DNA from: an uncultured Candidatus Saccharibacteria bacterium
Lineage (GTDB): Bacteria > Patescibacteriota > Dojkabacteria > SC72
Reading direction: 5' to 3'
DNA: 54,263 nt
Assembly (NCBI GenBank): GCA_964585985.1
Contig: CAZPFV010000001.1
Span: 29,199 to 83,461, forward strand
Within the stretch, counting starts at the first letter, position 1; every line of letters begins with the position of its first letter. Of the stretch, positions 567 through 54,263 are shown piece after piece. The notes under the pieces are model-generated. The model did not search any database. It saw only the letters and a program-made list of their open reading frames with translations, and was not told the origin of the DNA. A program made the position numbers and the translations under genes.

Positions 567-573
567 TGATGTT

Positions 574-602: not shown

Positions 603-609
603 ACACCCC

Positions 610-3277: not shown

Positions 3278-3299
3278 TTTTATTTAATAAATATAATAA

Positions 3300-4035: not shown

Positions 4036-4041
4036 ACTGAG

Positions 4042-4380
4042 ATGAGAGTCAAAGGCGGAACAGTAAGAAAAAGAAGGCACAACAAAATCATAGCCAAGGC
4101 AAAAGGATACAGGATGACAAAGAGTAAATTGTATAAGGTTGCTAATGAGGCAGTAATGCACGCAGGCCAATATTCATATAATGATAGAAAAAAGAGAGCT
4201 GGCCAATTTAGAACCTTATGGATTTCACGATTAAATGCAGCATGCAAAAATAATAATATTCAGTATAAGGATTTAATAAGTAAGCTTAAAAAGAATAATA
4301 TTGAACTAAACAGAAAAGTATTAGCTGATATTGCACTAAATAATCCTGAAGTATTCTCCTTTATAATAAAGTCTCTGTAG
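4042..4380 (+). CDS. rplT: 50S ribosomal protein L20
   Basis: MRVKGGTVRKRRHNKIIAKAKGYR..YNDRKKRAGQFRTLWISRLNAA is a canonical L20 sequence. Confidence 0.95.
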   Translation: MRVKGGTVRKRRHNKIIAKAKGYRMTKSKLYKVANEAVMHAGQYSYNDRKKRAGQFRTLWISRLNAACKNNNIQYKDLISKLKKNNIELNRKVLADIALNNPEVFSFIIKSL

Positions 4381-4401
4381 AGTAATATATTCTTGCAATA
4401 T

Positions 4402-4429
4402 AAAGACTCTACAAAGGGTCTTTTTTTTT
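4402..4429 (+). terminator. rho-independent terminator after rplT
   Basis: AAAGACTCT-ACAA-AGGGTCTTT forms a 9-bp stem (one G-U pair) with a 4-nt loop and runs into a 9-T tract (4421-4429). It starts 22 nt after the rplT stop. Confidence 0.6.
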
Positions 4430-4490
4430 ATTAATTTAATCTTTAAAATATAATACTGTATACTTACAGGATAATATAATATGTGAATAT

Positions 4491-5519: not shown

Positions 5520-5521
5520 CA

Positions 5522-8002
5522 ATGAAACTACCTATTAAAAATATATCTGAGTTTACACAGTGTGAATTGTCTCTAGAGGAATTACTCACTATTATTTCAA
5601 ACAAGATTGGAGAAGTTGAAGGATATACAGATTTTTCCGAAATGTACGAGGGTATAGTTGTTGCTCAAATAGTGGATAAAAAGGAGCATGCTAATGCAAA
5701 TAACCTATCAATATATATGGTAAATATCGGGGAGGGAGATAATATACAGGTAGTCGCAGGTGATAAGACATTAAATATTGGAGAAAAGGTCGCATACATT
5801 AAGCCAGGCCATACTGTCCCATTTACATATGGAACCTCTCAACCGTTACTAATTAAATCTGCAAATATGAGAGGTGTGCAGTCTAATGGAATGATGTGTT
5901 CTGAAAAGGAGCTAAATATTGGCTCTGATCATGAGAGGGTATTGGTACTAAATCCTGACGCTCAAGTGGGGGTGTCCTTTGCACAATACTATGAATTAAA
6001 TGATGTCATTATCGATATCGAAAACAAGGCATTAACAAATAGAGGAGATCTTTTTGGAATACTTGGACTAGCAAGAGAGATCTCTGCAGCTCAAAATATT
6101 CCTTTCACTAGTCCTAAATGGTACACAGAGATATCTTCTTGGGAAAATATTCCAGAAACATCTCCCATTGAAGTAGAGAATAGGGCAAAAAATCTATGCC
6201 CTAGATACTCATGCATAACAATGGATGGTATCACTGTAAAAGAGTCCCCAATTTGGTTAAAATCTATCCTTCTTAAATCTGGGATAAGACCAATTAACAA
6301 TGTTGTTGATATTACCAACTATATATCCATAATTACTGGACAGCCTCTTCATGCTTTCGACTACGACAAATTAGTAAATAATGATCCCAATAGCCAAAAT
6401 ATCGCACACATTATCGTTAGAGTAGCTGAAAATGGTGAGAAGATTCATACTCTAGATGGTAATCTTGTACATTTAAGTGAAAACAATTTAGTAATTGCAG
6501 ACAGTACAAATCCAATAGCCATAGCAGGTGTAATAGGGGGGAGCGATACCGAGATTGATTCTAATACAAAAAGAATAATAATAGAGAGTGCAAGCTTTGA
6601 TAGGTTTAGTATTAGAAAAAGTTCAATGAAGTTAGGAATATTTACTGAGGCTGTAACAAGATACACACGAGGCCAATCCCCAAACCTATGTATCTTACTC
6701 CTTCTTAGGAGCGTAGAGCTAATTAAAGAGCTTACAGGGGGCGAGGTAGCCACAAATATTGTAGATGTATATTCACAATCAACTGAGAGCAAAACAATCT
6801 CTCTCTCAATATCAAAATTAAATACATTATTAGGTACAAACCTTGAAAAGAGCGAAATACGTACAATACTTACGAATATGGAGTATGGAGTAGAGAGTGA
6901 AGATAGTGAATATATAACAGTTCAAACACCTAACTTTAGAACCGATTTATACATCCCAGAAGATGTGTATGAAGACATTGGAAGAATATATGGATATGAA
7001 AACATCTTACCTGAACTACCCTTAAGAAAATTAAGTGCAGGAAGAGTGAATAAGGGTATTCTCTTAAAAAGTAAGATTAGAAATATACTCTCATATTCAG
7101 GTTGTAACGAACTAGATACATACAGTTTCGTAAGTAAGAATAGCCTTTTATCGACAAAACAAGATCCTAACATTGCATACCATATTAAAAATGCTCTCTC
7201 TCCTGAACTAGAATTTATGAGGCCGACCTTACTAATATCCTTAATAGAGAAGGCTAGCTATAATATTCAGAAAAATATTTCCCCATTCTGTATCTATGAG
7301 TTTAATATCCCTCATCAGAAGGGATATCTGAATAACTTTCAACTACCTAAAGAGGATTGGCATCTATCACTACTTTTCAGTTCCAAAGAAAATATCTTTG
7401 ATGGTAGTGCCTTCTATCAAGTAAAACGATATTTTGAAAAAATATTAGATTCCACTAATTCTGCTAAGATTCAATATACTTTGCTATCTGAAAGTTCACA
7501 ATTGGATTTACCACTATGGATACAGAACTCATTAACTACTTTTAACAAAAACGAATGCGCTATTGTTAAATATTCTAAAGATGGCATAGATATTGTTTTA
7601 GGTATTATTGGTACACTGGATAGCCAAGTTTTAAACAATTATAAACTTCCTGATTACACCTCTGCTTTTGAAATTAATCTCGAGGCTTTAAGTAAGATAG
7701 TAGACAAAGATAAGGGAAACATAGATAGTTCAAAATACCCACCAATTACTCAAGATCTTACAATTACTGTCTCACCTACAACTAAATACGGGGATTTGGA
7801 AGAGCTAGTATTAAAGATTGTAAATGGAAATGAAAGAATAGGGCTGGTTGAGTGTGTAGATATCTATCAAAAAGATGAAAATAGTAGTAAAAATATTACT
7901 TTAAGGATTACAATTGAACATAAGCAGAAAACACTCTCTGACAAAGATTTCAACAAACTCAAGGAGAAGATAGAGGAGAAAAGCAAAGTTTTTAACTCGT
8001 AA
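5522..8002 (+). CDS. pheT: phenylalanyl-tRNA synthetase beta subunit
   Basis: Starts 2 nt after pheS. It has an N-terminal tRNA-binding fold, a B3/4 region (ITNYISIITGQPLHAFD), a B5 region and a C-terminal ferredoxin-like end (VDIYQKD..ITLRITIEH). Confidence 0.93.
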   Translation: MKLPIKNISEFTQCELSLEELLTIISNKIGEVEGYTDFSEMYEGIVVAQIVDKKEHANANNLSIYMVNIGEGDNIQVVAGDKTLNIGEKVAYIKPGHTVPFTYGTSQPLLIKSANMRGVQSNGMMCSEKELNIGSDHERVLVLNPDAQVGVSFAQYYELNDVIIDIENKALTNRGDLFGILGLAREISAAQNIPFTSPKWYTEISSWENIPETSPIEVENRAKNLCPRYSCITMDGITVKESPIWLKSILLKSGIRPINNVVDITNYISIITGQPLHAFDYDKLVNNDPNSQNIAHIIVRVAENGEKIHTLDGNLVHLSENNLVIADSTNPIAIAGVIGGSDTEIDSNTKRIIIESASFDRFSIRKSSMKLGIFTEAVTRYTRGQSPNLCILLLLRSVELIKELTGGEVATNIVDVYSQSTESKTISLSISKLNTLLGTNLEKSEIRTILTNMEYGVESEDSEYITVQTPNFRTDLYIPEDVYEDIGRIYGYENILPELPLRKLSAGRVNKGILLKSKIRNILSYSGCNELDTYSFVSKNSLLSTKQDPNIAYHIKNALSPELEFMRPTLLISLIEKASYNIQKNISPFCIYEFNIPHQKGYLNNFQLPKEDWHLSLLFSSKENIFDGSAFYQVKRYFEKILDSTNSAKIQYTLLSESSQLDLPLWIQNSLTTFNKNECAIVKYSKDGIDIVLGIIGTLDSQVLNNYKLPDYTSAFEINLEALSKIVDKDKGNIDSSKYPPITQDLTITVSPTTKYGDLEELVLKIVNGNERIGLVECVDIYQKDENSSKNITLRITIEHKQKTLSDKDFNKLKEKIEEKSKVFNS

Positions 8003-40665: not shown

Positions 40666-43382
40666 TGGCAATAGATTACGGATGGCAAAATAGAACAGTA
40701 TTAGGTCACCACGAAAAAGACAGTAATAGAGTGGAATTAATTGAAAAAGAACTCCCCATACTTACTAGAGAATCCGATGCTCTTTTTTTGGTTTCTAGAG
40801 ATCAATTCTTTACAGTATCTACACTTCAAATATCAAATGTCTTAGCTAACTATCTTAAATACAAAAAAACAAATAACAAACTTAGATTGATATCTAACAT
40901 TGCACTAGTTCCGGGGCTTTTCATAGCATTAGGATATCTTCTTCGACAGTTAAATTTGCTAGAAAATTTTACTTTTCTTAACAGCTTTCTCTCCAGCAAT
41001 ATTGCAAACATACTCTTTGGAATATCAATCTTTAATGTCTTCTTTCTTTGGTATGACTACTTCAAAGATAAAAGTCATCCAGTGCGACTCCCTAAAGCTG
41101 AGAAAATCTCTCTAAATGACTTAGAGGAGATACGAAATAGTGGATTTAAGTTTGGGAGATATGCACATCTTGAAGCGATTACATTTGTAGATGAAGATAC
41201 ATTAGATATACTTTGTAATAATACAAAAAATTTTGAAATTGAGATTTCAAATGTATTTACAGATTTAATTGTACGACCTGAAATACAAGAGATATTTAAA
41301 AGGGCAAACATCTCTATAACGGAAGATATTTTTAAACAGAATGATGTTACTAAAGAGACCTTACCCAAATACTCCTACACCGCTATAAGGAGCTTAATAA
41401 TATATTCTCTAAATGAAGCACTTCTAACCTCATCAACTGAGATACAACCTAAACATCTACTTCTCGCTCTCTTTAATGTATTTCCTGTATTAAGACAGGT
41501 ATTACTTACTCAAAATTCATCAGTAGATGTACTTAGAGAGGTTGTAAGATATCAATCTTACGAGTATCAAAAGAGAAAGAAAGGGAATACATTTAATCTC
41601 ACTGTTCCATACTTTAAAAAGGGCGGAGTAGCTAAAAACTGGATTTATGGATATACATATATACTTAGTCATTTTACGAAAAATTTAAACGAAGAGATAA
41701 TATCTGATAGGGATATTTACGGCATCGGCCATGATGATGAAATAGAGGCATTAATATCAGTGCTAGGTAAGGTGTCTAACCGAAATGCCCTCTTCATCGG
41801 AGAGCCTGGAGTTGGGAAGTCCAGTATTGTTCTTGGGGTAGCACAAAAAATTAATAGTGGAGATGTACCTATTCAGATTAAAGATAAAAGGATCCTTAAA
41901 TTTGATATTAATGGTCTCATTGCACAATCTTCAAAAGAAAGGAATCTTGAATTACTAATATCTAAATCTATGAAAGAGCTAGAGAATGCACAAGACGTAA
42001 TTCTGTATATTGATGAAATGCAGGAATTAATACCCTCTAAGGCAAGTGAGAGTGGACACTCCCTTGCTGGTATCTTACTACCATATATATTAAACAGTAA
42101 ATTCCCAATACTGGGTACTGTCAATTACTCTGATTACAAAAAATATTTCTACAGTATGGAGTCACTAAGACAATCCTTTACAAATATTGAAATAAAGGAG
42201 ATCTCTGCTGCAGATGCTCTTAAAATTTTGGAAACCAAAGTGTCGCAGTTAGAGCGAAATTTTGGAATATATCTTACATTCCCTGCACTAATCAGTGCAG
42301 TTGAGTTAGCCCAAAGATACAACAGAGAGAGGAAACTACCAAGTAGTGCTGTACAGCTAATTGAAGAAGCATGCTCCTGGTCTCAAACTAGTGGGGTAAG
42401 GATTGTAACCGAAGAACATGTATCTAAGGTTCTCTCTAACCAAAAAGGTATCCCTATTGGTAATGTAAACGCACAGGAGAGTACCCGACTAATGAAGCTA
42501 GAGGAGAATATGAAAGTAAAGATTGTAGGGCAAGAGGAGCCCATTAACGCCCTTATAGAGGCTCTCAGAAGAGCCCATGTTGATATTAGAAACCCTAACA
42601 AGCCAATCGGTTCATTTCTCTTTTTGGGCCCCACTGGAGTCGGTAAAACACATATATCTAAAGTACTTGCAGAGGAGTATTTTGGCAGTGCCTCAAATAT
42701 GGTAAGAGTTGATATGTCTGAATACAAGGATATTAATAGTGTAGAGAAATTCTTAGGAGGAAGCTCAGATGGAAGTATTTTGAGCAAATCGTCAATATCT
42801 TTGATAGACAAGATAAAGAGTAACCCATACTCCGTTGTACTCTTTGATGAAATGGAGAAGGCACATCCCCAAATACTAGACCTCTTCTTACAAATCTTTG
42901 ATGAAGGCAGACTCACTAGTACTCTGGGTGAGACGGTTGATTTTACCCACAGCATAATAATATGTACAAGTAATATTGGTAGTAATATCTTGTTAGAGTC
43001 TCTTTCTGATTCTCAAACAACCTGGGAAGAGGCCAAGGACAGGGTACTAATTGAATTACGACAAGCTATAAAGCCGGAATTGCTAAATAGGTATGATAAG
43101 GTGATAGTATTCCATCCTCACGATGTAAAGAATCTATCTCAAATCTCTGAATTACTGCTAGGAGAGCTAGCTACTAGACTAAATGAAAAAAGTATTAAGC
43201 TTAAATGGAGTAGTGTAATACCTCAATTAATAGCAAGTAAAGCAAATGAACCTGGTTTAGGTGCAAGACCAATTAAAAGATATATACAGGACCATATAGA
43301 GGGTAATATCGCAAAAGAGATGGTGGAGGGAAAAATTATCGCTGGACAAGAGATAGAGGTCAAAGAGAGTTGGATAGTATAA
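40665..43382 (+). CDS. two-ring Hsp100/Clp AAA+ ATPase with an N-terminal double-TM membrane anchor
   Basis: TM helices ISNIALVPGLFIALGYLL and IANILFGISIFNVFFLW. Clp_N-like HLLLALFNVFPVLRQVL. Walker A GEPGVGKSS and GPTGVGKTH. Walker B ILYIDEMQ and VVLFDEMEKA. I prefer ATG 40665 over the track start 40605. Confidence 0.85.
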   Translation: MAIDYGWQNRTVLGHHEKDSNRVELIEKELPILTRESDALFLVSRDQFFTVSTLQISNVLANYLKYKKTNNKLRLISNIALVPGLFIALGYLLRQLNLLENFTFLNSFLSSNIANILFGISIFNVFFLWYDYFKDKSHPVRLPKAEKISLNDLEEIRNSGFKFGRYAHLEAITFVDEDTLDILCNNTKNFEIEISNVFTDLIVRPEIQEIFKRANISITEDIFKQNDVTKETLPKYSYTAIRSLIIYSLNEALLTSSTEIQPKHLLLALFNVFPVLRQVLLTQNSSVDVLREVVRYQSYEYQKRKKGNTFNLTVPYFKKGGVAKNWIYGYTYILSHFTKNLNEEIISDRDIYGIGHDDEIEALISVLGKVSNRNALFIGEPGVGKSSIVLGVAQKINSGDVPIQIKDKRILKFDINGLIAQSSKERNLELLISKSMKELENAQDVILYIDEMQELIPSKASESGHSLAGILLPYILNSKFPILGTVNYSDYKKYFYSMESLRQSFTNIEIKEISAADALKILETKVSQLERNFGIYLTFPALISAVELAQRYNRERKLPSSAVQLIEEACSWSQTSGVRIVTEEHVSKVLSNQKGIPIGNVNAQESTRLMKLEENMKVKIVGQEEPINALIEALRRAHVDIRNPNKPIGSFLFLGPTGVGKTHISKVLAEEYFGSASNMVRVDMSEYKDINSVEKFLGGSSDGSILSKSSISLIDKIKSNPYSVVLFDEMEKAHPQILDLFLQIFDEGRLTSTLGETVDFTHSIIICTSNIGSNILLESLSDSQTTWEEAKDRVLIELRQAIKPELLNRYDKVIVFHPHDVKNLSQISELLLGELATRLNEKSIKLKWSSVIPQLIASKANEPGLGARPIKRYIQDHIEGNIAKEMVEGKIIAGQEIEVKESWIV

Positions 43383-43388
43383 TTGCTG

Positions 43389-43417
43389 TTGCAAGAACTA
43401 GGATATTAAAATATAAT
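43389..43417 (+). promoter_or_regulatory. sigma70-like promoter TTGCAA-17 nt-TATAAT upstream of rpmF
   Basis: TTGCAA 43389-43394, 17-nt spacer, TATAAT 43412-43417. A second -10-like TATAAA (43434-43439) lies 5 nt before the ATG. Confidence 0.45.
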
Positions 43418-43444
43418 ACAAGGTTTAATATTGTATAAATCGTT

Positions 43445-43630
43445 ATGGGAGCATTACCAAAAAGAAAAATCTCAAAAGGTAGAAGAAACAGAAGAAGGTC
43501 ACAAGACTTCTTAAAAGAGCCAAGTATGTCTAAATGCCCAAAATGTGGTAAGACAAAAAGACCACACTTTGTATGCGAATTCTGTGGCTACTACGGAGAT
43601 GGTAAAAATCTTAAAAGTAATAAATCGTAA
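43445..43630 (+). CDS. rpmF: 50S ribosomal protein L32 (zinc-ribbon form)
   Basis: MGALPKRKISKGRRNRRRS.. with CPKC..CEFC. Confidence 0.9.
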   Translation: MGALPKRKISKGRRNRRRSQDFLKEPSMSKCPKCGKTKRPHFVCEFCGYYGDGKNLKSNKS

Positions 43631-43642
43631 TCTTTAATTTCT

Positions 43643-44074
43643 ATGAAGAAATCTACTGACCCAAGGCATCTTTCAAGAGAGTTAGCCTTACAGCATCTTT
43701 TTTCAGATGATTTTAATGTATCCAAAGATAACATTATTAATTTTGAGGTATCAGAGCTATCTGTTTTAGATGAAATTGAGGAGTACAATGAAGAGCTGTA
43801 TCTTAATTTGATCACAGGTGTTAAAGAGAAGAGAGAAGAGATAGACTCAATCATCACACAGTATGCACCCCAGTGGCCAATTTCACAAATGAAATTAGTA
43901 GATTTACAAATACTTAGAGTCGCTATATATGAGGGCTTCATCTCAAAGATTACTCCACCTAAGGTAGCAATTGATGAAGCAATTGAATTAGCAAAGGGGT
44001 TTGGTGGGCAGAGTAGTAGTAAATTTGTTAATGGAGTATTAGGAGCAATATATGAAAAACATAAAGATGAATAA
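43643..44074 (+). CDS. nusB: transcription antitermination factor NusB
   Basis: [14 protein letters not shown].., ..[11 protein letters not shown].., ..[24 protein letters not shown]. Confidence 0.88.
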
Positions 44075-44759
44075 AATCGAAGAAATAGAGAACAGAATTG
44101 GTATCACCTTTGTTGATAAGCAGCTTTTAATTGATGCGTTAACTCACAGATCATTCGTTAATGAGCATAAGGAGAGCAGGACACATAACGAGAGACTGGA
44201 GTTTTTAGGAGATGCTGTATTAGAGTTAATTGTTTCAGTATATCTTTATGAATCGTATCCATCTAGACCAGAGGGTGAATTAACGAGCTTTAGATCTGCA
44301 CTTGTTAAAACAGATAGCTTAGCGGAAACAAGTAAAGAGTTAGATCTAGGAGAAAGCCTTCTGCTTTCTAAAGGCGAAGAAGAAACAGGGGGGAGGACAA
44401 AAAATTTTCTCTTAGCCAATACCTTCGAAGCTATAATAGGAGCGATATATCTTGATCAAGGGTACGAAAAAAGTAAAGAGTTTGTACATATGCATCTGAT
44501 ACAGAAATTAGATAACATTATTAAAAACAGAACGGATATTGATAGTAAGACCAAGATACAAGAGATTGCTCAAGCTAAGTACAAAGTGACTCCTGTGTAT
44601 GAAGTAACTAAGGAAGAAGGGCCTGATCATAATAAAGAGTTTACAGTTGTAATCAAGATAAAAGGTAAGATAATAGGGGAGGGTAGTGGAACAAGTAAAC
44701 AGAGAGCGGAGGAAGATGCCGCCTCTAAAGGAATAATATATATCGACAATAATAAATAA
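44052..44759 (+). CDS. rnc: ribonuclease III
   Basis: Signature [16 protein letters not shown] plus a C-terminal dsRBD ([33 protein letters not shown]). The start may be ATG 44067 (8-nt overlap with nusB) rather than 44052. Confidence 0.92.
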
Positions 44760-44763
44760 GAGC

Positions 44764-44792
44764 TTGAATATTAATATCTCATCTGCTAAAAT
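44764..44792 (+). promoter_or_regulatory. sigma70-like promoter TTGAAT-17 nt-(TGc)TAAAAT upstream of rpsP
   Basis: TTGAAT 44764-44769, TG at 44784-44785, TAAAAT 44787-44792, ATG at 44802 (9-nt gap). Confidence 0.5.
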
Positions 44793-44801
44793 ACCTTTGC
44801 T

Positions 44802-45101
44802 ATGTTAAAAATAAGACTAAAAAGAACAGGAAGAAGAGGACAACCACATTACAGAATTGTGGTTATGGAATCAACCTCTCCTAGAGATGGGAAAAGTATC
44901 GAAGAGATTGGATACTACAATCCTAGAAATAAGCCTACAACATTTGAAGTAGATCAAGAAGCCGCAGCTAAGTGGCTTGCAAAGGGTGCACAGCCCTCTG
45001 ACACTGTAGCTCAATACTTCGTTAAGCTTGGGTTAATTAAGTCTCTAAAAAGAGGTTCTACAAAGCCAAGTACTGCTAAAAAAGAGAAGAAGGAAGCGTA
45101 A
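44802..45101 (+). CDS. rpsP: 30S ribosomal protein S16
   Basis: MLKIRLKRTGRRGQPHYRIVVMES..GYYNP. Confidence 0.95.
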   Translation: MLKIRLKRTGRRGQPHYRIVVMESTSPRDGKSIEEIGYYNPRNKPTTFEVDQEAAAKWLAKGAQPSDTVAQYFVKLGLIKSLKRGSTKPSTAKKEKKEA

Positions 45102-45187
45102 CTTCCTACCCCTTATAATTACTCCTAGTAAATTTTGATTAAGGAAGGTATAATTACCTGATAGACTTTAATTTATTTTTCTAAAAG

Positions 45188-45487
45188 ATGAAAGAACTAC
45201 TAGAGCATATTATTAAATCCATTGTCAATTATCCAGACGATGTCTCAATTGATGAAAGGGAAAGCATAGATTTTCCAGGGTTAACAATTCTTACTATTAA
45301 CGTAAATGAAAGTGACAAAGGAGTTATCATCGGAAGAAAAGGAAGAACAATAAATTCCATAAGAGACATTCTTACAATAAGTGCTATAAGAAGTGGCAAG
45401 AGAGTAAGAGTAATCCTTAAAGATGATAAAGTAGCACACGAAAGTGCAGACATTGCCGACGAGGATATGCTTCAAGATGAGATTTAA
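45188..45487 (+). CDS. KH-domain RNA-binding protein (YlqC/UPF0109-like)
   Basis: LLEHIIKSIVNYPDDVSI.. and the GxxG loop VIIGRKGRTINSIRDIL. Conserved position after rpsP. Confidence 0.85.
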   Translation: MKELLEHIIKSIVNYPDDVSIDERESIDFPGLTILTINVNESDKGVIIGRKGRTINSIRDILTISAIRSGKRVRVILKDDKVAHESADIADEDMLQDEI

Positions 45488-45489
45488 CT

Positions 45490-46176
45490 CTAGAGACGAT
45501 TCTCAGTTTTTACTTTAAATACCTCTACGATATCTTCATACTCTGTGTATGGCTGAAAAGGTGAGTAAATGTCAATTTTCTCTCCACTGCCATCTGCAAT
45601 ATAGTACCCACTTACAGTTAATTCAATTTCCCAAACATCGGAATTATCTTCTCGTTTCGAGCTACTAAGCTCTACATTCTCTAGTCTTAACATATAGGGG
45701 GATACATTTTGAGCCTCATCTAAGAAAGATATAATGTTGTTGTACTCCCCTTTATACGCAATAGGTCCAGAAACAGACTCTAGTGCGTCAGAAGATGCCA
45801 GTTTTGATATTTCCAAACTTAATGATTTAGCAAGATTATCAAGGTAGTATACTAAGTCAGAGACTAACAAGATATTTGGGACTACTTTTTTAGCAGTAAG
45901 CACATCATCTCTAAGCGCATCTTCATCTATCCTCTTTAACTGCTCATCTAATTTTTCTAACTGTTTAATCTTTCCCTCAACAACTTTCATCTCTCCACGA
46001 TATTCAAAAGCTGATCTTACCATTGGTATAAAAACAGCAAATGACAGAATAGCAAATGCTGCCGCAGATGCGAAAGGGATAATCAAATCACCAAGCGTCA
46101 ATTTTGTTTTCTTACTCTTGGCTATATCCCTTAGCTCCTCACTCTTTTTTCTATCTGTTCTGTTTAATAATGCCAT
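45490..46176 (-). CDS. pilO: type IV pilus assembly protein PilO-like
   Basis: Third gene after pilM-pilN. One TM helix, a coiled-coil (EGKIKQLEKLDEQLKRIDE), then an alpha/beta domain (..YKGEYNNIISFLDEAQN..LRLENVEL..). Confidence 0.6.
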   Translation of the reverse strand: MALLNRTDRKKSEELRDIAKSKKTKLTLGDLIIPFASAAAFAILSFAVFIPMVRSAFEYRGEMKVVEGKIKQLEKLDEQLKRIDEDALRDDVLTAKKVVPNILLVSDLVYYLDNLAKSLSLEISKLASSDALESVSGPIAYKGEYNNIISFLDEAQNVSPYMLRLENVELSSSKREDNSDVWEIELTVSGYYIADGSGEKIDIYSPFQPYTEYEDIVEVFKVKTENRL

Positions 46177-46178
46177 TA

Positions 46179-46871
46179 TTAATTATTCTTAAAATTGTCT
46201 AAAATAAGGACTCCACTAAAAGTAAATTTCGCGCCTTCATCCGATTTATTAAAAGATTCTAATTTAATACTTTTTATATTTTCATTTACACCAAACAGAT
46301 ACCATAGCCGAGAAAGCTGTTCTAAATCAGGTGCATTTCCTGTTAACTCAAATCCTAAATTTTCAGATATCTCTATAGTAGAGAAATTGATACCTTGTAC
46401 CTTCCTACCTATTTCTCTAAAGTACTCAATTATTCTTTTATGTGAGAAACTGTCCTCTTCGACTTTTTGATAAAGACGAATCCTTGTTAAGATAATATTA
46501 TTCAAAGATATTGTCTCTGATCTATCATTAATACTTTTCTCTATTTTTCTCAAAGAGTTCTGTTTGCTAGCTAGTTGTGTTTTGGAAATAATGTTAAATC
46601 CTACAATAGCGATTGTGATGGCTACAAATATGATAATCGTGAGAATAGACCCAATATTTAAAGTATTCTTTTTTTTGATTGTACTCTTCTGCTCCTTAGT
46701 TAGTGATGGTATAAGGTTAACACCCTCTGATGCTTGCACTTTTTGAGGCTCAGCAAGGGTTGCGCCCATTGTTGTAGGAGTTGGGGGAGGTGCAATAGGC
46801 CCAGGTGCAGCAGCTGGTTGCTGTTGTGGAGGGATACTATTTACTTGTTGTGGTTGTTGTTGATTATTCAT
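46179..46871 (-). CDS. pilN: type IV pilus assembly protein PilN-like with Q/P-rich N-terminal extension
   Basis: The GVNLIPS motif is followed by TM helix ILTIIIFVAITIAIVGFNII. 8-nt overlap with pilM. The N-terminus MNNQQQPQQVNSIPPQQQPAAAPGPIAPPPTP is low complexity. Confidence 0.7.
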   Translation of the reverse strand: MNNQQQPQQVNSIPPQQQPAAAPGPIAPPPTPTTMGATLAEPQKVQASEGVNLIPSLTKEQKSTIKKKNTLNIGSILTIIIFVAITIAIVGFNIISKTQLASKQNSLRKIEKSINDRSETISLNNIILTRIRLYQKVEEDSFSHKRIIEYFREIGRKVQGINFSTIEISENLGFELTGNAPDLEQLSRLWYLFGVNENIKSIKLESFNKSDEGAKFTFSGVLILDNFKNN

Positions 46872-47892
46872 CTTTTAATGCTAAACCTATTGCTACAGAG
46901 TACGACGCCCCTGTTTTAGCTAGTATACTTTTAAATCTATTATCCACTGCTATATTATTCCATGGATTTGCAATTTGTGCACTAACCCCTAGTGATTTAG
47001 ATACATACTCCGTTAAGCCCGGAAGTAGTGCACCGTCACCATTTAGTAGATATTCCATAGGAGGAGCACTCAAAGTTCTATTTTTATAAAATTCTACTCC
47101 TCGTCTTACTTCAATGATAATAGAGTCAATAATGGGTAGTAGGGCACCGTAAATTTTCCCCTCTACTACTGATGAGACTAGTCCGTAGCTCCTTTTAAAC
47201 TGTTCTGCTCTGTTATAATCAAAATTAAATTTGTTAACTACTGCCTGTGTTAGCGCATCAGAGCCTATCGGTATACTTTGCGAGAATACCAATGCTCCAT
47301 TTGTCATAATACTCATATCTGTACTGTTTGCACCAAAGTCTAACATAACTGCATCTTTTTTCTTCATTGATCTAAACATGGCTCTTCCCATTGCAACAGA
47401 CTCTGTTTCAATCGCAATTAAATCTAGACTTGCGAAATTAGCGACATTCATATAGATCTCTATTATCTTTTTAGGTGCTGCAACAAGTAATACCCTTGGA
47501 GCATTTCTCTCCTGATTAAACCCTATAACAACATAGCTCATTTGCACATCATCAATTGGTACTGGTATATACTGTTTTGCTTCATAATATACTGCCTGTT
47601 TGAGTTCCTCTTGTTTCACTCCAGGAAATTCTAAAAATCTCGTAAATACTGAGAACTCGGGTAGAGCCATCACAACATTTACATTCTTCATTTTAGTGTT
47701 GGCGTAGAGAGTCTTGAGTGCATCCCCCAATTTTTTTTGATCCTGTCTTTCCTCACTGTTGATAACTCCTTTTGGAGTTAATTGCATACCCAAATTTGTC
47801 AATTGTGGGGTATTAAGAATGTTCTTTAGTTCGACAGCTTTCACTGTATGTGTTCCGAAATCTATGCCTACATGATCTGGCAATTTCGCCAT
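46864..47892 (-). CDS. pilM: type IV pilus assembly ATPase-fold protein PilM
   Basis: Actin-like fold motifs VGIDFGTHTVKAVEL, MLDFGANSTDMSI and LNGDGALLPGL. Confidence 0.88.
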   Translation of the reverse strand: MAKLPDHVGIDFGTHTVKAVELKNILNTPQLTNLGMQLTPKGVINSEERQDQKKLGDALKTLYANTKMKNVNVVMALPEFSVFTRFLEFPGVKQEELKQAVYYEAKQYIPVPIDDVQMSYVVIGFNQERNAPRVLLVAAPKKIIEIYMNVANFASLDLIAIETESVAMGRAMFRSMKKKDAVMLDFGANSTDMSIMTNGALVFSQSIPIGSDALTQAVVNKFNFDYNRAEQFKRSYGLVSSVVEGKIYGALLPIIDSIIIEVRRGVEFYKNRTLSAPPMEYLLNGDGALLPGLTEYVSKSLGVSAQIANPWNNIAVDNRFKSILAKTGASYSVAIGLALKDE

Positions 47893-47965
47893 ACTTACTG
47901 GACAGTTAATTTATGACTACTAATATGATAGCAGAAATGATTCAATCTTTGAAATTAGTTAAATA

Positions 47966-50900
47966 CTATGGCTTGATTCCAGCCTCAGCAGAGTGCACTA
48001 CAGTAGTTTTAGCAAAAAATTGCTCTACTAGATACCCATACTTAGGATGTAAATCAATAGCTACAACAGGATATACTAATCTCTCTTCTAGTCTAAGATA
48101 CCTATTTACTACAATGCTTGTACTACTTCCTTTAGATATTAACCCTCCATTAATATATACACCATCTACAATATTTGGAGGTGGGACATTATCAGCTCCA
48201 ACTGTAATTACCCCATCTGCAACTATGAAAGCATTTACTTTCTCATATTCGAAAACATTTGGTCTTTCATGGGTTCCTGCATTTATGACTACACTGCCAC
48301 TTACAACAAAAATACAGCCATTTTGATTACTTAAGGTCGTTGCATTTTGGCTATGTATTGGAGGACTAATTGATAGGTTTCCATCAACAAATATTACAGC
48401 TTTCTTGTCACAACGCAAATTACTATTAACAGTAAGATTTCCTAAGCGATGGAAAGCACAGTAAGTTCTACTGCATGTATTTAAATTTGCTAAAGAGGAG
48501 GAGGTCAAGGTTATCTCCTGTAAAGCATCCCCTAAATTGGTTATCTGATATTCATACTTTTCTTTTAGATCTTTGTACAATGATTCTGTTTGAGAAATTA
48601 CTTGATTTCCATGTCCCGCTAGAGAGTATGAATTTGTCGCTGGAGCATTTACCAAAGCATTACTTCTGTTTGCAAGCATTTCACTCGTTAATCCTCCATT
48701 TTTGCGGAGCATACCATCACTTGCTGATAAAGGATAGGGAGGAAGGGTGCCTTGCCATAATGAGTCGTTTGCTAATGTTAATTCTGCAAAGGAAGGGTTT
48801 CCACTAGAGTAGAGTAAGCCTCCACCAGTTAAGAATCTGTCTGAGAGATTTTCACCCACAGAGAAAGTGGTCATATTACCTGCATAATCAAATACATGTA
48901 AATATATGTTGATGGCTCCTTGAGTATTTTGTCCTACATCTATACTTACAGTTCCACTATTTGTTGAGGAGTTCAGGTGTGCTGGCTGAACTTGAAATGA
49001 CCAATCCCCATTTAGCTTTCCTACTAAATCACCGCTACCACTACTTGGCTCTGGTTGAAAAATACCGTCTCCATTCCTTAATGAAATCGTATGAGAGGGA
49101 GTACCAACTAGATCAATATCTATCTCCTTCCTATTTATATCCGTAGCAGAGGAGTATACATTTCCTACAATTGCATAAAGATTTCTATCATCTCCCGCTT
49201 CCCATTCTACAATTATTTTATTTTCCTGAATTTCTGTGTTTACATTAATTGTTGGACTGACTGAGTCTATTACCCAATTCTTTCCTGAGTCTGTCCAATT
49301 TCTAGCATATGTTTGGTTTTGTGACGGCTTATATCTTAAAGTATTAGCATCTGGCCAGTAGTAAGACAGGTCTGTATAGCCATGTCTTAAGAAGTTGGAC
49401 TGCCAATATCCTCCGTAATTTATTCCTGGATAGTTGTCGTACGGGGTAAAACTAAATTTGTCTAAACCAAGAAGGAAAATATCGTAATTTCCGTCTTGCA
49501 CCTGTCCACCGTAACGAGTTCCAGCACTACTTGAGAATTGCAAACTAAATTCCATATTTAACTCATTATTATTACCTGCTGATACAGAAGGTGGGGCTAG
49601 TACTGACACTCGTACCATTTGTTGGTTATTAGGACTCGCGATATCAAATACTTTGTAGAACGCTGTTGTTGACAAGGTCGCTACTGTCCAATATGAAGTT
49701 GCCCCAGCGTAAGAGGGTACATACGGGATCCAATCAGTTCCGTTTCTTCTTAGCATGAATCCCCAACTATCACGTGCAGAGGATTGAGGAGTAGCACTCG
49801 TTGATAGATTTACTGGAGTGTTGGGCACTCCAGTGTAGTGACTCTCTCTAAACCATACAAACATGCCTTCAATATCGTTTGCGCCATCATTGTCGGTATA
49901 GGTGGCTTTCATCTTTATCGGGAGAAGGGGATCATTTAAGCTTCCAATTCTAGAGTTAGTACTACTACTCCCTGTGTGAGTATGGCTTACAAAATCATAA
50001 CCGTTAGCGGTTGGAGCTGGGTCGTTCACAACTATACTTAATTTGGTTGTAGGCTGGGGTGAAGATGGTTCATAGCAGTCATCTTCACTTTCTAGGGGTT
50101 TCACACCACAATCATTTGTACACTCTCTAAAATCATTTAGAATTAAATTAGCATTCCCTGTATTTGTTAATGGAGATGGACATGATTTCAGGCAAGAACT
50201 ACAGTAGCAACTTCTGTATGTTAAATCACAAAGGGTTGTCCTGTTTGGAGTAGAAGAGCTTCCTCTTCTACAACTGGCTGTACTTGAGTCTGCGACTTTT
50301 CCTTGGTAAACACCTGATTGGTACTGGGCAGATTCGAAATATCCTAGGGTTGAGCATAGTGGAGGAGTACAGGCATTGCAGTAACAATTTATAGAGGTAC
50401 TATTTCTCTTTGGGTTACAATTATTCGTTGAGACACCATTTGTCCTATCACAATACTCTGTTTGAGTAGAATGGAAATCAGAGGTTTTAGGGTACAGTGG
50501 GTCTGTAGGGATACTATTTGTTGTTGATGTTCCACTAGGACAAACTGGAGTAGGAGGGGTACAGTTAATACAACGACACCAACAGTCTTCACTGGAGGTC
50601 CCACAACAGGAATTAGTATGTGTTCTAGATCCACAAGCATATGAGTCTGTTGAATTGGTGTCTCCATTAGAACAACTTCCCCAACCAGCAGAGCAAGTAG
50701 AATTACAAGAACCACCACTACAACCGCAGGAACAAGAGGTATACGAATATGTCCCACCCCAACAACATCCTGAGCCTTGATACATCTTACCGGGACCACA
50801 CAACGCGGATGATGCATAACATGTACCATTCTCCAAGCAATCACTGCTACACGCACTTCTACAACCAGTAGGCCAACATCCACCTGGTGTAAGTTCGCAA

Positions 50901-51028
50901 ACCTTTGTAGAACCACTACACCAACATGCCGATAATGGAGTAGGCGTTGAGAAATAAGCAAAGCTAAAAGCTATTAAAAACGTAATTAGAATAATGAGTG
51001 TTCTTGGATTAATTATTTTTCTGTCCAA
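47966..51028 (-). CDS. 1020-aa secreted protein: signal peptide, ~290-aa Cys-rich module (about 40 Cys), Ig-like/beta-rich middle, beta-helix-like C-terminus; paralogue of the gene at 52378
   Basis: Signal/anchor LIILITFLIAFSFAYF. Motifs CWCRCINCTPPTPVCPSG, NCYCNACTPPLCS, SCYCSSCLKSCPSP, and HVFDYAGN. The C-terminus reads AVIFVDGNLSI..GCIFVVSGSVVINAG..GVYINGGLIS. Confidence 0.85.
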   Translation of the reverse strand: MDRKIINPRTLIILITFLIAFSFAYFSTPTPLSACWCSGSTKVCELTPGGCWPTGCRSACSSDCLENGTCYASSALCGPGKMYQGSGCCWGGTYSYTSCSCGCSGGSCNSTCSAGWGSCSNGDTNSTDSYACGSRTHTNSCCGTSSEDCWCRCINCTPPTPVCPSGTSTTNSIPTDPLYPKTSDFHSTQTEYCDRTNGVSTNNCNPKRNSTSINCYCNACTPPLCSTLGYFESAQYQSGVYQGKVADSSTASCRRGSSSTPNRTTLCDLTYRSCYCSSCLKSCPSPLTNTGNANLILNDFRECTNDCGVKPLESEDDCYEPSSPQPTTKLSIVVNDPAPTANGYDFVSHTHTGSSSTNSRIGSLNDPLLPIKMKATYTDNDGANDIEGMFVWFRESHYTGVPNTPVNLSTSATPQSSARDSWGFMLRRNGTDWIPYVPSYAGATSYWTVATLSTTAFYKVFDIASPNNQQMVRVSVLAPPSVSAGNNNELNMEFSLQFSSSAGTRYGGQVQDGNYDIFLLGLDKFSFTPYDNYPGINYGGYWQSNFLRHGYTDLSYYWPDANTLRYKPSQNQTYARNWTDSGKNWVIDSVSPTINVNTEIQENKIIVEWEAGDDRNLYAIVGNVYSSATDINRKEIDIDLVGTPSHTISLRNGDGIFQPEPSSGSGDLVGKLNGDWSFQVQPAHLNSSTNSGTVSIDVGQNTQGAINIYLHVFDYAGNMTTFSVGENLSDRFLTGGGLLYSSGNPSFAELTLANDSLWQGTLPPYPLSASDGMLRKNGGLTSEMLANRSNALVNAPATNSYSLAGHGNQVISQTESLYKDLKEKYEYQITNLGDALQEITLTSSSLANLNTCSRTYCAFHRLGNLTVNSNLRCDKKAVIFVDGNLSISPPIHSQNATTLSNQNGCIFVVSGSVVINAGTHERPNVFEYEKVNAFIVADGVITVGADNVPPPNIVDGVYINGGLISKGSSTSIVVNRYLRLEERLVYPVVAIDLHPKYGYLVEQFFAKTTVVHSAEAGIKP

Positions 51029-52320
51029 TACAATAAATATATCAAATTATCTCTCAATTGATAGCTCATTAATTTCAATTCTGAGTCTTCCAAACTTACA
51101 GAACTAACAATAAAAGCCCCTGATTCATTAGTAACTGTAGTATGTCTGATGAGCTCCTTTACGGTATCCTCCAAAGACTCAATTGGAGAATTAAACAGTT
51201 GACTTGCAAGAAAACAATTATTTAATTCTACGAAATTTCTTGTAATCGCAGTATCTATCTCATTCTTTATCACTTCCTCTATCTTCGGTTTTAGAAATTT
51301 ATATATCTCTTCATTCTCTGTTGTATATGCAATAGTACAGAGACCATTTAAAAGTAAATCGGATTCATTATATGTCTCAATCATCATATTCTGATGAGAT
51401 TTAGAGTATCCTTTATCCATACCGATTTCATCAAAAAGTTTTGAATTATTCGAGTATTGAACAATGTCACGATACTCTATAGAAAAGGACTCACTCTCTA
51501 GGCTTAGATTTGTAAAATCTTTATTTAATTTAATTTCAGCAAAATCCATAAATTGTAGTGAGTCGGCATCAAAGGCATCGTAACCCTCAGTGAAGCTTTC
51601 ATCTAACCCTATCTCTACTAATTTTAATAGATAAGCATTCGGTTTATACTCAACTCTTAAATCTTCCTTTGAATAGTTATTATTAATATATTCTATCTCC
51701 CTATTTACATACTCATACAACTCTTTGTCATCATATTTCTTAGCAACTTGGTAAGTAAGGTATGTTAACTGAAGGTACTCTTCTGTAAGATCTTTAGAAT
51801 CATTACATCCCCAAATAATTTTATCCCTTGTAACTCCCCCCGTAATACAACCCACATTCTCTTGGATGGAGTATTGACTAAGCATATGCTTTACTCCATT
51901 AAAGTACTCCGAATATACAGGTGAGGAGATTGTCTGATTGTTGGAAATAATTTGCATCTCATCAATAGTATATCCCTTACCCGGGAAGAGATTATATTTT
52001 TTGAATGTGATATCAATTTTATATATCCCACTACTGTTAAATTCATTCTTCACTATTTTTGTACAAGGAACTTTAAGAACATCTTTAATAGCAAGATTAT
52101 TATATTTGATTTCACAAGTATCTTTATCAAATTTTTCAATATACAGTTCAATTACAAGCTGATTTTCTTCAATATGTTGAGTTACAGTTTCAAATCTTTG
52201 CTTATATATGTCCTTCTCATCTTTTAGTGTATTTAAAAAATAGAGATATACCCCTGACGCTATTAGAAGTGCGAGGAGAAATATAAGGATAATCTTTTTA
52301 ATTGTATTATTTTTAGTCAT
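51013..52320 (-). CDS. hypothetical N-terminally anchored extracytoplasmic protein (435 aa)
   Basis: TM helix IILIFLLALLIASGVYLYF. Mostly helical, D/E/N-rich ectodomain. It overlaps the downstream gene by 16 nt. Confidence 0.7.
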   Translation of the reverse strand: MTKNNTIKKIILIFLLALLIASGVYLYFLNTLKDEKDIYKQRFETVTQHIEENQLVIELYIEKFDKDTCEIKYNNLAIKDVLKVPCTKIVKNEFNSSGIYKIDITFKKYNLFPGKGYTIDEMQIISNNQTISSPVYSEYFNGVKHMLSQYSIQENVGCITGGVTRDKIIWGCNDSKDLTEEYLQLTYLTYQVAKKYDDKELYEYVNREIEYINNNYSKEDLRVEYKPNAYLLKLVEIGLDESFTEGYDAFDADSLQFMDFAEIKLNKDFTNLSLESESFSIEYRDIVQYSNNSKLFDEIGMDKGYSKSHQNMMIETYNESDLLLNGLCTIAYTTENEEIYKFLKPKIEEVIKNEIDTAITRNFVELNNCFLASQLFNSPIESLEDTVKELIRHTTVTNESGAFIVSSVSLEDSELKLMSYQLRDNLIYLLYWTEK

Positions 52321-52377
52321 AATCGATTAGTAGTTATATACACATAATATTAATTGAACCGTAATTTTATATCACTT

Positions 52378-54263
52378 TTAATAGGGAGTAATACCCACCT
52401 CTGTCTCTTGCATATTTACTAGGATACCAAATAGGGATCTAGCTAATACTCCATACTTAGAATGATGATTTACAACTACTGCGGGATACCTTAATCTATC
52501 CGCAACCCTTAATGTCCTTTCCATTCTAATTGCATCCGTGGCCTCCTTAATAGTATGAATACCACCACTAATGTAAAGGCCATCTCCTTCAGCATCTTTT
52601 TTAATAGATATCTGTCCATCAGATAATAGATACATATTTATTTCATCATACTGCAATTGCGAAGTACTCATTTTATTCCCAGCCTTAATTGTTACATTAC
52701 CAGATGCTATAAATATGCAGGCATCCTTCTGTGCATTCGCATTAGTAATTCTCCCATCAATAATTAAATCACCATCAACGAAAAATACCCCCTGTCTATC
52801 ACACTTAAATGATGAGCTTACAGTTAGAGTACCTACAGTATCACCAACAGCTATTTGATTAGGTTCCACCCCTTCGCCCAGATTAGATAGATTTCCTGAT
52901 AAGGAGGTAACACTGCCCAAATTTTTTAAAGTATGTGCTATTGTATCTTTCCTTCTGTTAAATGAATTTTTAAGCGAATTGTAATATCCATTAGGCGGAT
53001 TAGAAGATAAAAACGGTTGTATCATGTATGACTCTGTTGCTCCACTTCTAGAGGGTGCAACAGGGGTAGCTCCACTTTTACCAATTAGCTCGGTTGATAT
53101 ATCTGCATGAGCTCGTGCTATCTCTTTAAGTAAATTCTTTGAATCGAGCCAATCAGTCAAATCCCCTCGATTATCGACATTAATCTTTATTTCATCAGAA
53201 TACAGTAAACCTCCTTGAGTAATTAACCAATCTCTTAAATCCAGTTTAAGATCATTATGGCTTCCGATATTTCCCCCTTTATCAAAGGCTGTGAGATAGA
53301 AGTGTAGACTACCTTGACCGACATTATTCAAAGTAAGAAGGGCTGAGCCATTACCATTACCTCCATGAATTTTTAATAGATATTCATTTACACTTGCTTC
53401 TAGTGATCCAACGAGATCATCATGATTCCCCTCTTCTTTAAGCTTTAGACCATTGTTGAGATCCATAGAACTAGCTCCTCCATTATTAATATTTGATAAA
53501 GAAATTGGATCAATAGCTAACCCCTTGCTTTTGTATATATTAAGTACCAAATCACTGAATTCATCTGGTAGACCACCGCCCGAATGATTAAACTTCCAAT
53601 CTAACTCTATTCCAGATGAGGAGCTGCTACTAGGTTTTACTGTCAGAACAATTGTTGGGAGATAGAAATTTAAATTCCATACGACTGATGTTTTTTGCCA
53701 TTGGTCATAATATCGTATCCTTTCGTTAGTTATCCATCTGTTTTTAATTGCATTCTTAACGACATTTTCCCTATCCTCATAATTATCATATGGTGTAAAA
53801 CCAAATGTATCATTTGCCATTAACCATATTTTATATTCTCCTTCTTCAGCAACATTAGCAAGAAAATTATTGTCATTAGCTTTGAAACTTAAACTGAATT
53901 TTAACTTTACTGTTTTACCATTATTAGAAGGGGTTATAGAGTAGAGTAGTACTTTTGCAATAATACCTGTTGGTCCAGGTATGGAAATTACAGTCTTACC
54001 ATCAACTGTTTCAGAGTATTCATTTAGGGCTTGTTTCCAAAGATCGGATGAGCCTTCTCCTGTTCCTGCTATAGCTGGGATGTAGGGTGTCCATATACCA
54101 GCCTTGTTATGTAGCATAAAACCGAATTCTCCCTTACTTCTACTGCCATATTTTTGAGGTGTAGAGTCATTGTTTAGATCAATACTCATGGGAGTAATAG
54201 GCTTACTCCCACTCTTATTAAACCATACATACACCGCCTCTATTGGTAAATCCTGATCTATAA
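52378..54263 (-). CDS. large secreted protein, paralogue of 47966-51028 (5' end outside the window)
   Basis: The frame stays open beyond the track's GTG (54234) to the window edge (..IDQDLPIEAVYVWF, compare DIEGMFVWF in the paralogue). Shared blocks include FGFTPYDNY, FDKGGN, QGGLLYS, VFFVDGDLII and RYPAVVV. Confidence 0.8.
   Translation of the reverse strand, partial: IDQDLPIEAVYVWFNKSGSKPITPMSIDLNNDSTPQKYGSRSKGEFGFMLHNKAGIWTPYIPAIAGTGEGSSDLWKQALNEYSETVDGKTVISIPGPTGIIAKVLLYSITPSNNGKTVKLKFSLSFKANDNNFLANVAEEGEYKIWLMANDTFGFTPYDNYEDRENVVKNAIKNRWITNERIRYYDQWQKTSVVWNLNFYLPTIVLTVKPSSSSSSGIELDWKFNHSGGGLPDEFSDLVLNIYKSKGLAIDPISLSNINNGGASSMDLNNGLKLKEEGNHDDLVGSLEASVNEYLLKIHGGNGNGSALLTLNNVGQGSLHFYLTAFDKGGNIGSHNDLKLDLRDWLITQGGLLYSDEIKINVDNRGDLTDWLDSKNLLKEIARAHADISTELIGKSGATPVAPSRSGATESYMIQPFLSSNPPNGYYNSLKNSFNRRKDTIAHTLKNLGSVTSLSGNLSNLGEGVEPNQIAVGDTVGTLTVSSSFKCDRQGVFFVDGDLIIDGRITNANAQKDACIFIASGNVTIKAGNKMSTSQLQYDEINMYLLSDGQISIKKDAEGDGLYISGGIHTIKEATDAIRMERTLRVADRLRYPAVVVNHHSKYGVLARSLFGILVNMQETEVGITPY

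Follow-up and report, generated by a model that had tools for sequence, protein, structure and literature searches.

Within a 54,263-nucleotide (nt) stretch of DNA from an uncultured Candidatus Saccharibacteria bacterium (GTDB lineage Bacteria; Patescibacteriota; Dojkabacteria; SC72; assembly GCA_964585985.1, contig CAZPFV010000001.1), hereafter the window, a gene placed beside those of a type IV pilus encodes a secreted protein of 1020 amino acids (protein A, or paralogue A) whose N-terminal part is packed with cysteines (Cys). A sequence-only reading of the window had taken this part for either a disulfide-knotted adhesive module or a metal-binding surface, and the question raised by the locus is which of these applies and what the module might do on a pilus-bearing cell. 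The analysis described here points to a disulfide-stapled repeat with an exchangeable head, and the best-supported mechanism, which we infer from synteny, architecture and evolutionary pattern, is that of a pilus-borne, PilY1-like adhesin.

Counting bore out the proposed 40 or so cysteines at residues ~35-325: protein A contains 44, of which 40 fall at residues 35-318 (nt 50054-50926). At the genome-wide Cys frequency of 1.04%, as determined from open reading frames (ORFs) of at least 100 amino acids, the chance of finding 40 or more in 291 residues is 1e-31. The three C-x-C-x2-C strings from which a thrice-repeated signature had been proposed match the translation exactly, at residues 150-166, 214-226 and 273-286. 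Three bare C.C..C motifs are only mildly unexpected for a sequence of this composition (shuffle P=0.028); three copies of the extended signature C.C..C[TL][PK][PS] occurred in none of 20000 shuffles. The density had been called unusual for a bacterial secreted protein, which is true of bacteria in general; in this lineage it does not apply, given that Cys-rich secreted proteins are common both in this genome and in the candidate phyla radiation (CPR) (PMC4736985). At least five other long Cys-rich ORFs (17-45 Cys), most of them with an N-terminal hydrophobic segment, are found on contigs C34, C46, C39 and C8 of the same genome.

The G+C content of 0.45-0.47 at 50500-50950, against 0.30-0.36 in the flanks, and the 190-codon alternative-frame ORF in the same stretch were both as the sequence-only reading had described them. 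Such locally odd composition together with a long second frame could be a sign of an artefact, i.e., a frameshift, a mis-assembly or translated non-coding DNA of high G+C content. Both features, however, arise from the encoded amino-acid composition, rich in stop-poor Cys, Gly, Ser and Thr codons. The observed G+C values of 0.457 (residues 35-155) and 0.423 (35-320) compare with 0.461 and 0.424 expected from the amino acids and the ordinary codon usage of the window, a match on which a foreign origin of the stretch was rejected as well. In four orthologues the alternative frame stays open for just 75-128 codons; for want of a conserved length it was rejected as a gene. No sign of a frameshift or assembly error, which the sequence-only reading had named as a danger to its claim, was seen: more than 50 homologues, assembled independently and drawn from several sources, show the same open frame, Cys pattern and unit boundaries, and the ratio of nonsynonymous to synonymous substitutions (dN/dS) over repeat units U1-U3 is 0.12. 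The artefact is effectively refuted already, and we allow it next to no probability.

To define the repeat, the N-terminal regions of protein A and 18 homologues were cut at the C-x-C-x2|C seams. The internal units always carried six Cys, or eight in some variants, and the canonical unit of the relatives was 40-41 residues long, with the spacing C-x4-C-x17-C-x3-C-x7-C-x-C in 29 of 36 distinct units and the consensus CTPxSCPSGTSExNTGDxYxTYSCTNxCxxSxxRxCYCxI. The three signatures of protein A are the seams U0|U1, U1|U2 and U2|U3 of this six-Cys repeat (Table 1). Units U1 and U2 are loop-expanded versions of the canonical one. A hidden Markov model (HMM) of the 40-residue form found no match in the six-frame ORFs of the genome, protein A included. 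Since this model does not score the units of protein A, their equivalence is based on their positional alignment to canonical units and to forms of intermediate type. Across the family, conservation climbs from the head (30% identity, 60% coverage), which ends in a conserved C-x-C-G-C-S-G-G-x-C-N motif, through U2, with Cys columns conserved at 81-94%, to U3, the family-wide junction to the immunoglobulin (Ig)-like body (mean identity 72%, coverage 96%, Cys columns 87-98%). Copy number ranges from ~2 to more than six units in the homologues, and loop length varies as well. In some of them (e.g., P0016, P0018, P0171 and P0172) Listeria-Bacteroides repeats (Flg_new, PF09479) are inserted between the Cys units; a Pfam scan detected none in protein A.

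The module is without a relative in the profile and structure libraries that were searched. At E<=1, Pfam and NCBIfam returned no family for protein A, nor anything for the large proteins among protein A, its paralogue and their neighbours, and PDB sequence searches, whether run with protein A itself, with a profile of the whole family or with one of the repeat unit, gave no useful match; the best hit of the unit profile (14 canonical units) was an antibody complementarity-determining region at E 0.42. Structure prediction, which the sequence-only reading had suggested as a check, was performed with AlphaFold2 (AF2). Residues 28-345, modelled from 40 sequences, formed a stack of long two-stranded beta-hairpins with a mean predicted local distance difference test (pLDDT) score of 72 and blocks up to 94. 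Hairpins were placed at 129-138/144-152 in U0 and at 185-194/208-217 in U1 (pLDDT up to 93), and U2 scored 72-93. By Foldseek, this stack had no structural neighbour (best E 4.7 in PDB and 1.7 in BFVD), and the full-length model (pLDDT 74) retrieved generic tandem Ig-like adhesin stalks (AspA 4ofq, UafA, ClfA, Als and BcpA) at E ~1e-4 with low template modelling (TM) scores. A match to a known Cys-rich family, which had been named as evidence that would count against the claim, was thus returned by none of the Pfam, NCBIfam, PDB and Foldseek searches; EGF, laminin-EGF, TNFR, furin-like, GCC2_GCC3, Myxococcus Cys-rich repeat and VSP families were all rejected for want of a profile match at E<=1. 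The Cys spacings of EGF, laminin-EGF, TNFR, furin-like and VSP repeats, to go by general descriptions of these families, differ from 4-17-3-7-1. EGF and laminin-EGF, TNFR and furin-like domains and the CXXC repeats of Giardia VSPs offer a functional analogy only, as chains of 40-residue units with 6-8 Cys that serve as rigid stalks outside the cell or as variable surface coats. A literature search for a described family of such modules turned up only general CPR papers.

With regard to the state of the cysteines, the position of the module is informative. Cleavage of the signal peptide, for which AF2 models a helix at residues 8-23, is predicted after L-S-A, directly ahead of Cys35, and would leave a mature protein of ~985 residues. 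A signal peptidase I-type [VILA]-x-A immediately precedes the first Cys or first Cys cluster in every homologue, which means that the Cys module is extracytoplasmic and begins the mature protein. The N-terminus of protein A, MDRKIINPRTLIILITFLIAFSFAYFSTPTPLSA, contains no prepilin motif G-[FM]-[ST]-L-x-E (G-F-T-L-x-E) and gave no N_methyl match; a type IV pilin, including modular pilins such as S. sanguinis PilB, was ruled out on the grounds that a class III signal peptide is lacking. The mature Cys count was even in 41 of 48 full-length relatives (range 16-100; binomial p=3e-7, uncorrected for relatedness). Protein A has 40 plus 4, and units with extra Cys have two extra. A membrane-anchored DsbA/MdbA-like protein of the Thioredoxin_4 family with a CSYC site (91.7 bits) is encoded on contig C8, and the MdbA-like enzyme family has been described as CPR-enriched and linked to pilus proteins (PMC6744442). 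From this combination of sequence features, we consider it likely that the module is stapled by disulfides. As a separate observation, this sole DsbA/MdbA-like gene (258 amino acids, N-terminal anchor) lies directly downstream of another Cys-rich surface-protein gene (locus L003, i.e., C8:13096-16611, ORFs 1-1179 and 1255-2031).

Several points weigh against disulfides and lend themselves to the second option of the sequence-only reading, namely that reduced Cys coordinate Zn, Fe, Cu or Fe-S extracellularly, for scavenging, redox chemistry or metal-stabilised folding. The disulfide-formation system for which that reading had proposed to look was found in part: alongside the anchored CSYC protein, no VKOR, DsbB or DsbD (PF07884, PF02600 and PF02683, models that matched in 3, 6 and 10 control genomes, respectively) to sustain oxidative folding was detected in this 96.7%-complete genome. 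Of the features expected of a disulfide-bonded protein, extracytoplasmic location (signal peptide), an even Cys count and an oxidase were therefore found, and a re-oxidant or DsbD/CcdA was not. Several relatives come from metagenome-assembled genomes (MAGs) of anaerobic digesters and bioreactors, an anoxic habitat that would suit a metal-binding surface and in which disulfides outside the cell may be difficult to maintain. An even number of Cys is equally compatible with Cys4 metal sites, and CxC, CC and CxxC spacings are many. Metallothionein-like proteins, however, consist of ~25-33% Cys, with few or no aromatic residues and with Cys clusters that form metal-thiolate sites. The module, at just ~14% Cys with 22 aromatic residues (14 Tyr, 5 Trp and 3 Phe) and 2 His, resembles neither these nor ferredoxin-like sites, and on these values, its export and its 6-Cys units a metallothionein-like or metal-cluster protein was rejected. 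Moreover, Cys are gained in steps of two (from six to eight per unit) rather than four, they sit on predicted paired beta-hairpin strands, an oxidase of the DsbA/MdbA type is encoded, and no metal-binding family was matched in Pfam or NCBIfam. We regard metal coordination as improbable. Of the two options first offered, disulfides are favoured by the signal site, the even counts, the paired gain of Cys and the DsbA-like enzyme; the adhesive part of that option we only infer.

Comparison with a close strain, L010 (Logan ERR13731073), located the most variable part of the module. DNA identity was 94.3% over 41966-50752 and 92.6% over 50912-54263, and nothing could be aligned over the intervening 50753-50911, which encodes residues ~40-92; the break is sharp at either side. 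At the protein level, the heads are 33% identical, compared with 91% for the rest of the module and 85% for the body; dN in the head is 0.89 with dS saturated, and dS elsewhere is 0.1-0.24. Because of the contrast in identity, the sharp ends of the alignments and the saturated dS, the head is a replaced cassette and not a gradually diverged stretch. The head of protein A is 53% identical to that of homologue P0002, and their bodies are only 45% identical. Two head types occur among the relatives, and homologue P0165 carries both in tandem. In the assembled genome, no silent head cassette of the other type, of the sort found in a pilS-like variation system, was seen; the only match was a weak one to the Cys-rich protein on C34. 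This indicates, as far as the assembly shows, exchange between strains rather than an intragenomic switch. The C34 ORF in question (546 amino acids, truncated at the end of its contig) resembles the 'type II' head weakly in its own head (34% over 71 residues, E=0.003), followed by a Listeria-Bacteroides-type repeat and then fibronectin type III (FN3)-like repeats.

The genomic surroundings of protein A are those of a type IV pilus. In relatives L004-L007, the gene order is prepilin-type minor pilins, anchored protein, paralogue B, anchored protein, paralogue A and pilMNO, and the same order is seen in the close strain L010, starting with the fourth minor pilin. In every relative examined, the gene has minor pilins on one side and pilMNO on the other. 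L004-L007 and L009 have four prepilin-like genes upstream, of which two exceed the N_methyl cut-off and the fourth, by reading, lacks Glu5 like PilX/GspK. The pilM/pilN/pilO block (45490..47892), which follows paralogue A after a gap of 73 nt, is collinear in every relative examined. This arrangement invites comparison with the PilY1/PilC proteins of Pseudomonas, Myxococcus and Neisseria (PF05567). Like these, protein A comprises ~1000 residues, has a Sec signal and is not a pilin; it is encoded directly after four core minor pilins (a FimU/PilV/PilW/PilX-like set); and it has a variable N-terminal part, a more widely shared C-terminal part and multiple paralogous sets per genome (features of PilY1/PilC as given in PMC7541494). 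The likeness is thus one of minor-pilin linkage and a Sec-type, non-prepilin signal. It does not extend to sequence or fold, no relation of either kind having been detected: instead of a beta-propeller and a vWA domain, protein A has a disulfide-type repeat rod and a solenoid-like C-terminus, and where PilY1 has its C-terminal propeller, Pfam gave no match at E<=1 and AF2 models a helix (817-835) and well-predicted short repeated strands (836-1000). No PF05567 match came from the genome, nor did any come from the control genomes.

Two further CPR systems are of relevance. PilX1 and PilX2 of Nanosynbacter lyticus TM7x (Saccharibacteria; T4P-1 and T4P-2) have been proposed as PilY1-like adhesin components, with PilX2 needed for host binding (PMC12206443). 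They share with protein A the CPR background, location in minor-pilin clusters, the lack of a PilD-type signal and extra globular domains. They differ in having a beta-jelly roll and a seven-bladed propeller, and the word 'cysteine' occurs 0 times in that paper. Large Cys-rich extracellular proteins have also been described in Peribacteria and Peregrinibacteria (Anantharaman et al., 2016), with a proposed attachment role and one disulfide-forming enzyme per genome (PMC4736985). These, too, are large, strain-variable and very Cys-rich with a signal peptide, but belong to another lineage and were described collectively; weak similarity to Myxococcus Cys-rich repeats was noted, and neither a link to the pilus locus nor a definition of a repeat was given (PMC4736985). 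Protein A gave no match to Myxococcus-type Cys-rich repeat models in Pfam or NCBIfam.

Drawing on these comparisons, we lean slightly towards the view that protein A is a non-homologous analogue of the PilY1/PilC-type pilus adhesins with a variable, disulfide-stapled head. According to this proposal, protein A would be exported by Sec and its signal peptide cleaved, leaving the Cys-rich ectodomain at the N-terminus of the mature protein. The Cys would then be oxidised to intramolecular disulfides by the anchored DsbA/MdbA-like enzyme, giving a rigid, protease-resistant rod. No sortase motif or C-terminal anchor could be read from the sequence of protein A, so that this secreted protein needs a partner in order to be retained on the cell. 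The C-terminal domain may hold it on the pilus machinery in the manner of PilY1/PilC, the likeliest partner being the priming or tip complex of four minor pilins encoded just upstream. The Cys-rich rod would project outward, and the exchangeable head would contact the surface of a host or partner cell.

A number of observations count against this proposal. There is no homology to PilY1/PilC (no PF05567 and no vWA domain), and the case for a role at the pilus or its tip comes from gene neighbourhood and analogy. Among the alignable parts, dN/dS relative to L010 is highest in the C-terminal domain (0.76), which is unexpected of a strictly conserved docking domain; over protein A as a whole the value is 0.37. 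In the AF2 models, the head reached a pLDDT of only 50-86. The C-terminal domain is also the part of the protein found most widely in the phylum, since in other families and classes the profile matched nothing else, and the highest dN/dS between strains and the widest detectability fall in the same domain.

Alternatively, protein A could be a fixed component of the envelope, acting in a stationary type IV pilus machine or its passage through the wall (a PilP/PilQ/TsaP-like role without an outer membrane), or forming an independent surface fibre co-transcribed with pilMNO, with the rod as a rigid spacer. The position of the gene directly upstream of pilMNO, the absence of PilQ from CPR (PMC6744442), the occurrence of the paralogues as a pair in each genome, with a small anchored protein ahead of either one, and the resemblance of the body to the stalks of wall-anchored Gram-positive adhesins are all consistent with such a role. 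A machine part would be expected to be as conserved as PilM, which is 90% identical in a same-genus genome and has a dN/dS of 0.03 relative to L010, whereas protein A is 42% identical in that genome, with a dN/dS of 0.37 relative to L010, and has a swapped head; the corresponding identities are 61% for PilN, 66% for PilO and 46% for paralogue B. In addition, protein A has no membrane or wall anchor once the signal is cleaved, and the slot after four minor pilins is the classical PilY1 position. We therefore hold an envelope role to be unlikely.

A more far-reaching version of the adhesin proposal is offered tentatively, as a possibility that we find doubtful. In this version, the rod is an undescribed fold with which the type IV pilus of an episymbiont would bind its receptor, and the outermost 50-60 residues would be a host-specificity cassette. 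Co-occurring strains would exchange the cassette through homologous recombination, with the conserved signal peptide and C-x-C-G-C-S-G-G as flanks, much as receptor-binding tips are swapped among phages. If true, the cell would have to maintain at least 20 extracellular disulfides per molecule although no DsbA re-oxidant is known, which would imply an as yet undescribed route of oxidation in the quinone-free CPR bacteria.

The distribution of the family was determined by profile searches, which returned 241 cluster representatives with E<1e-3. Approximately 75 homologues of 800-1630 amino acids are alike in their N-terminus. Of 14 genomes sampled from the same GTDB family, 12 matched the profile, usually twice each, and weak matches confined to the C-terminal domain were obtained in 7 of ~286 further genomes from the phylum. 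Five distant members that share only this domain also start with a Cys-rich module after a signal peptide, and three of their five loci have prepilin-like genes nearby.

The sequence-only reading had asked whether the paralogue at 52378 has the same module. Contig C1 ends with the window, inside paralogue B, and the N-terminus of B is not assembled in its own genome. Its orthologue in L010 (883 amino acids; 92.6% identical in the shared DNA) shares with protein A only a base unit like U3 (C-x2-C-x3-C-P-x-P-L ... C-Y-E-x-x-S-P-Q-P), and U3 is likewise present in other orthologues of paralogue B. The remainder differs: the first 300 residues of the L010 protein contain 12 Cys and lack the thrice-repeated C-x-C-x2-C. 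Other orthologues of B have 18-25 Cys in the N-terminal part.

The genome comprises 0.82 Mb in 69 contigs with 35% G+C, and its relatives are labelled Candidatus Dojkabacteria. L005 and L006/L009 were deposited as 'uncultured Candidatus Saccharibacteria', one of them in the GTDB genus of the window; with other relatives labelled Dojkabacteria, these labels look wrong. The first three minor pilins of this genome, preceded by pilB and a pilT-like gene, are at the start of contig C12, which begins inside the third; pilD is on contig C35. Since the minor pilins run off the start of C12, this contig probably adjoins the end of the window. The genes expected in the unassembled gap are those of the fourth minor pilin, a response regulator and a helper, along with the first ~260 codons of paralogue B. 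The assembly break (54263 and the C12 start) coincides with the part of the locus that varies most. In relatives, the fourth minor pilin and the first helper are separated by a single-domain response regulator (PF00072; L009, 3979-4362; L010, 1021-1404); the equivalent region of the present genome falls in the gap.

A small protein with an N-terminal anchor is encoded ahead of each paralogue, with 148-185 amino acids before B (L009, 4387-4944; L010, 1539-1985) and 338-435 before A (window, 51013-52320; L009, 7500-8516; L010, 4709-6016). These have no detectable similarity to each other, and the arrangement suggests a duplicated cassette of a helper and a large secreted protein. The position of the second is conserved (338-352 amino acids in relatives and 435 in L010); in the window it may be a helper, and the start of the paralogue A gene overlaps it by 16 nt. 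In L008 (JAXGOY010000013.1, a Dojkabacteria MAG; 364-7140), both paralogues are broken into several ORFs upstream of pilMNO and a third family copy lies upstream of pilM, where frameshifts, assembly errors or decay are possible. Two antisense ORFs inside the paralogue A gene, 47913-48326 (+, 137 amino acids) and 48475-48807 (+, 110 amino acids), are unsupported and probably due to chance. Residues 743-812 form a disordered linker in the full-length AF2 model.

Table 1. Features of the paralogue A locus, in window coordinates.
Feature	Position	Strand	Description	Basis
Paralogue A gene	47966..51028	minus	1020-aa secreted protein; TTG start	ORF list
Signal peptide	50927..51028	minus	residues 1-34; MDRKIINPR, 17-residue hydrophobic core, STPTPLSA	read from sequence
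Hypervariable head	50696..50926	minus	residues 35-111; 77 residues, 15 Cys	Cys positions; lowest conservation
Replaced cassette in head	50753..50911	minus	residues ~40-92; 159 nt	blastn high-scoring segment pairs stop at 50752 and resume at 50912 (vs L010)
Degenerate repeat unit U0	50564..50695	minus	residues 112-155; 8 Cys; ends C-W-C-R-C-I-N	aligns with canonical six-Cys units of relatives in A3
Repeat unit U1	50372..50563	minus	residues 156-219; 64 aa, 6 Cys; CTPPTPVCPSGT...INCYCNA	segmentation; alignment to canonical and intermediate units
Repeat unit U2	50195..50371	minus	residues 220-278; 59 aa, 6 Cys; CTPPLCSTLGY...SCYCSS	segmentation
Base unit U3	50069..50194	minus	residues 279-320; 42 aa, 5 Cys; CLKSCPSPLTNTG...NDFRECTNDC...DDCYE	family alignment
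Body	48803..50068	minus	residues 321-742; beta-sandwich (Ig-like) domains	AF2, pLDDT mostly 80-95
C-terminal domain	47969..48592	minus	residues 813-1020; 4 conserved Cys; helix, then short repeated strands (solenoid-like)	AF2, pLDDT ~90
Alternative-frame ORF, not a gene	50389..50961	minus	190 aa	wholly within G+C-enriched, stop-poor Cys/Gly/Ser/Thr-coding stretch
pilM	46864-47892	minus		PilM_2 Pfam match, 3e-51
pilN-like	46179-46871	minus		directly downstream of pilM
pilO-like	45490-46176	minus		downstream of pilN-like
Anchored protein between paralogues	51013..52320	minus	435 aa, N-terminally anchored	ORF; no significant family match
Paralogue B, partial	52378..54263	minus	C-terminal 627 aa; complete orthologues 836-903 aa	28% identical to A over body and C-terminus

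The existence of large Cys-rich extracellular CPR proteins is already known (PMC4736985); what is added here is the definition of a repeat, the evidence from Cys parity, the missing re-oxidant and the bounded replacement of the head. The repeat C-x4-C-x17-C-x3-C-x7-C-x-C could seed a family model. The presence of many extracellular Cys together with a DsbA, but without DsbB or VKOR, poses a biochemical puzzle. Much of bacterial diversity belongs to the CPR, or Patescibacteria, which live attached to other cells. To our knowledge, how they recognize their hosts is largely unknown outside a few cultured Saccharibacteria. With its function proposed from genomic context, the protein A family offers a concrete candidate for that part of the Dojkabacteria pilus which makes contact, and its sharply bounded, swapped cassette can be tracked in metagenomes as a possible marker of host range.

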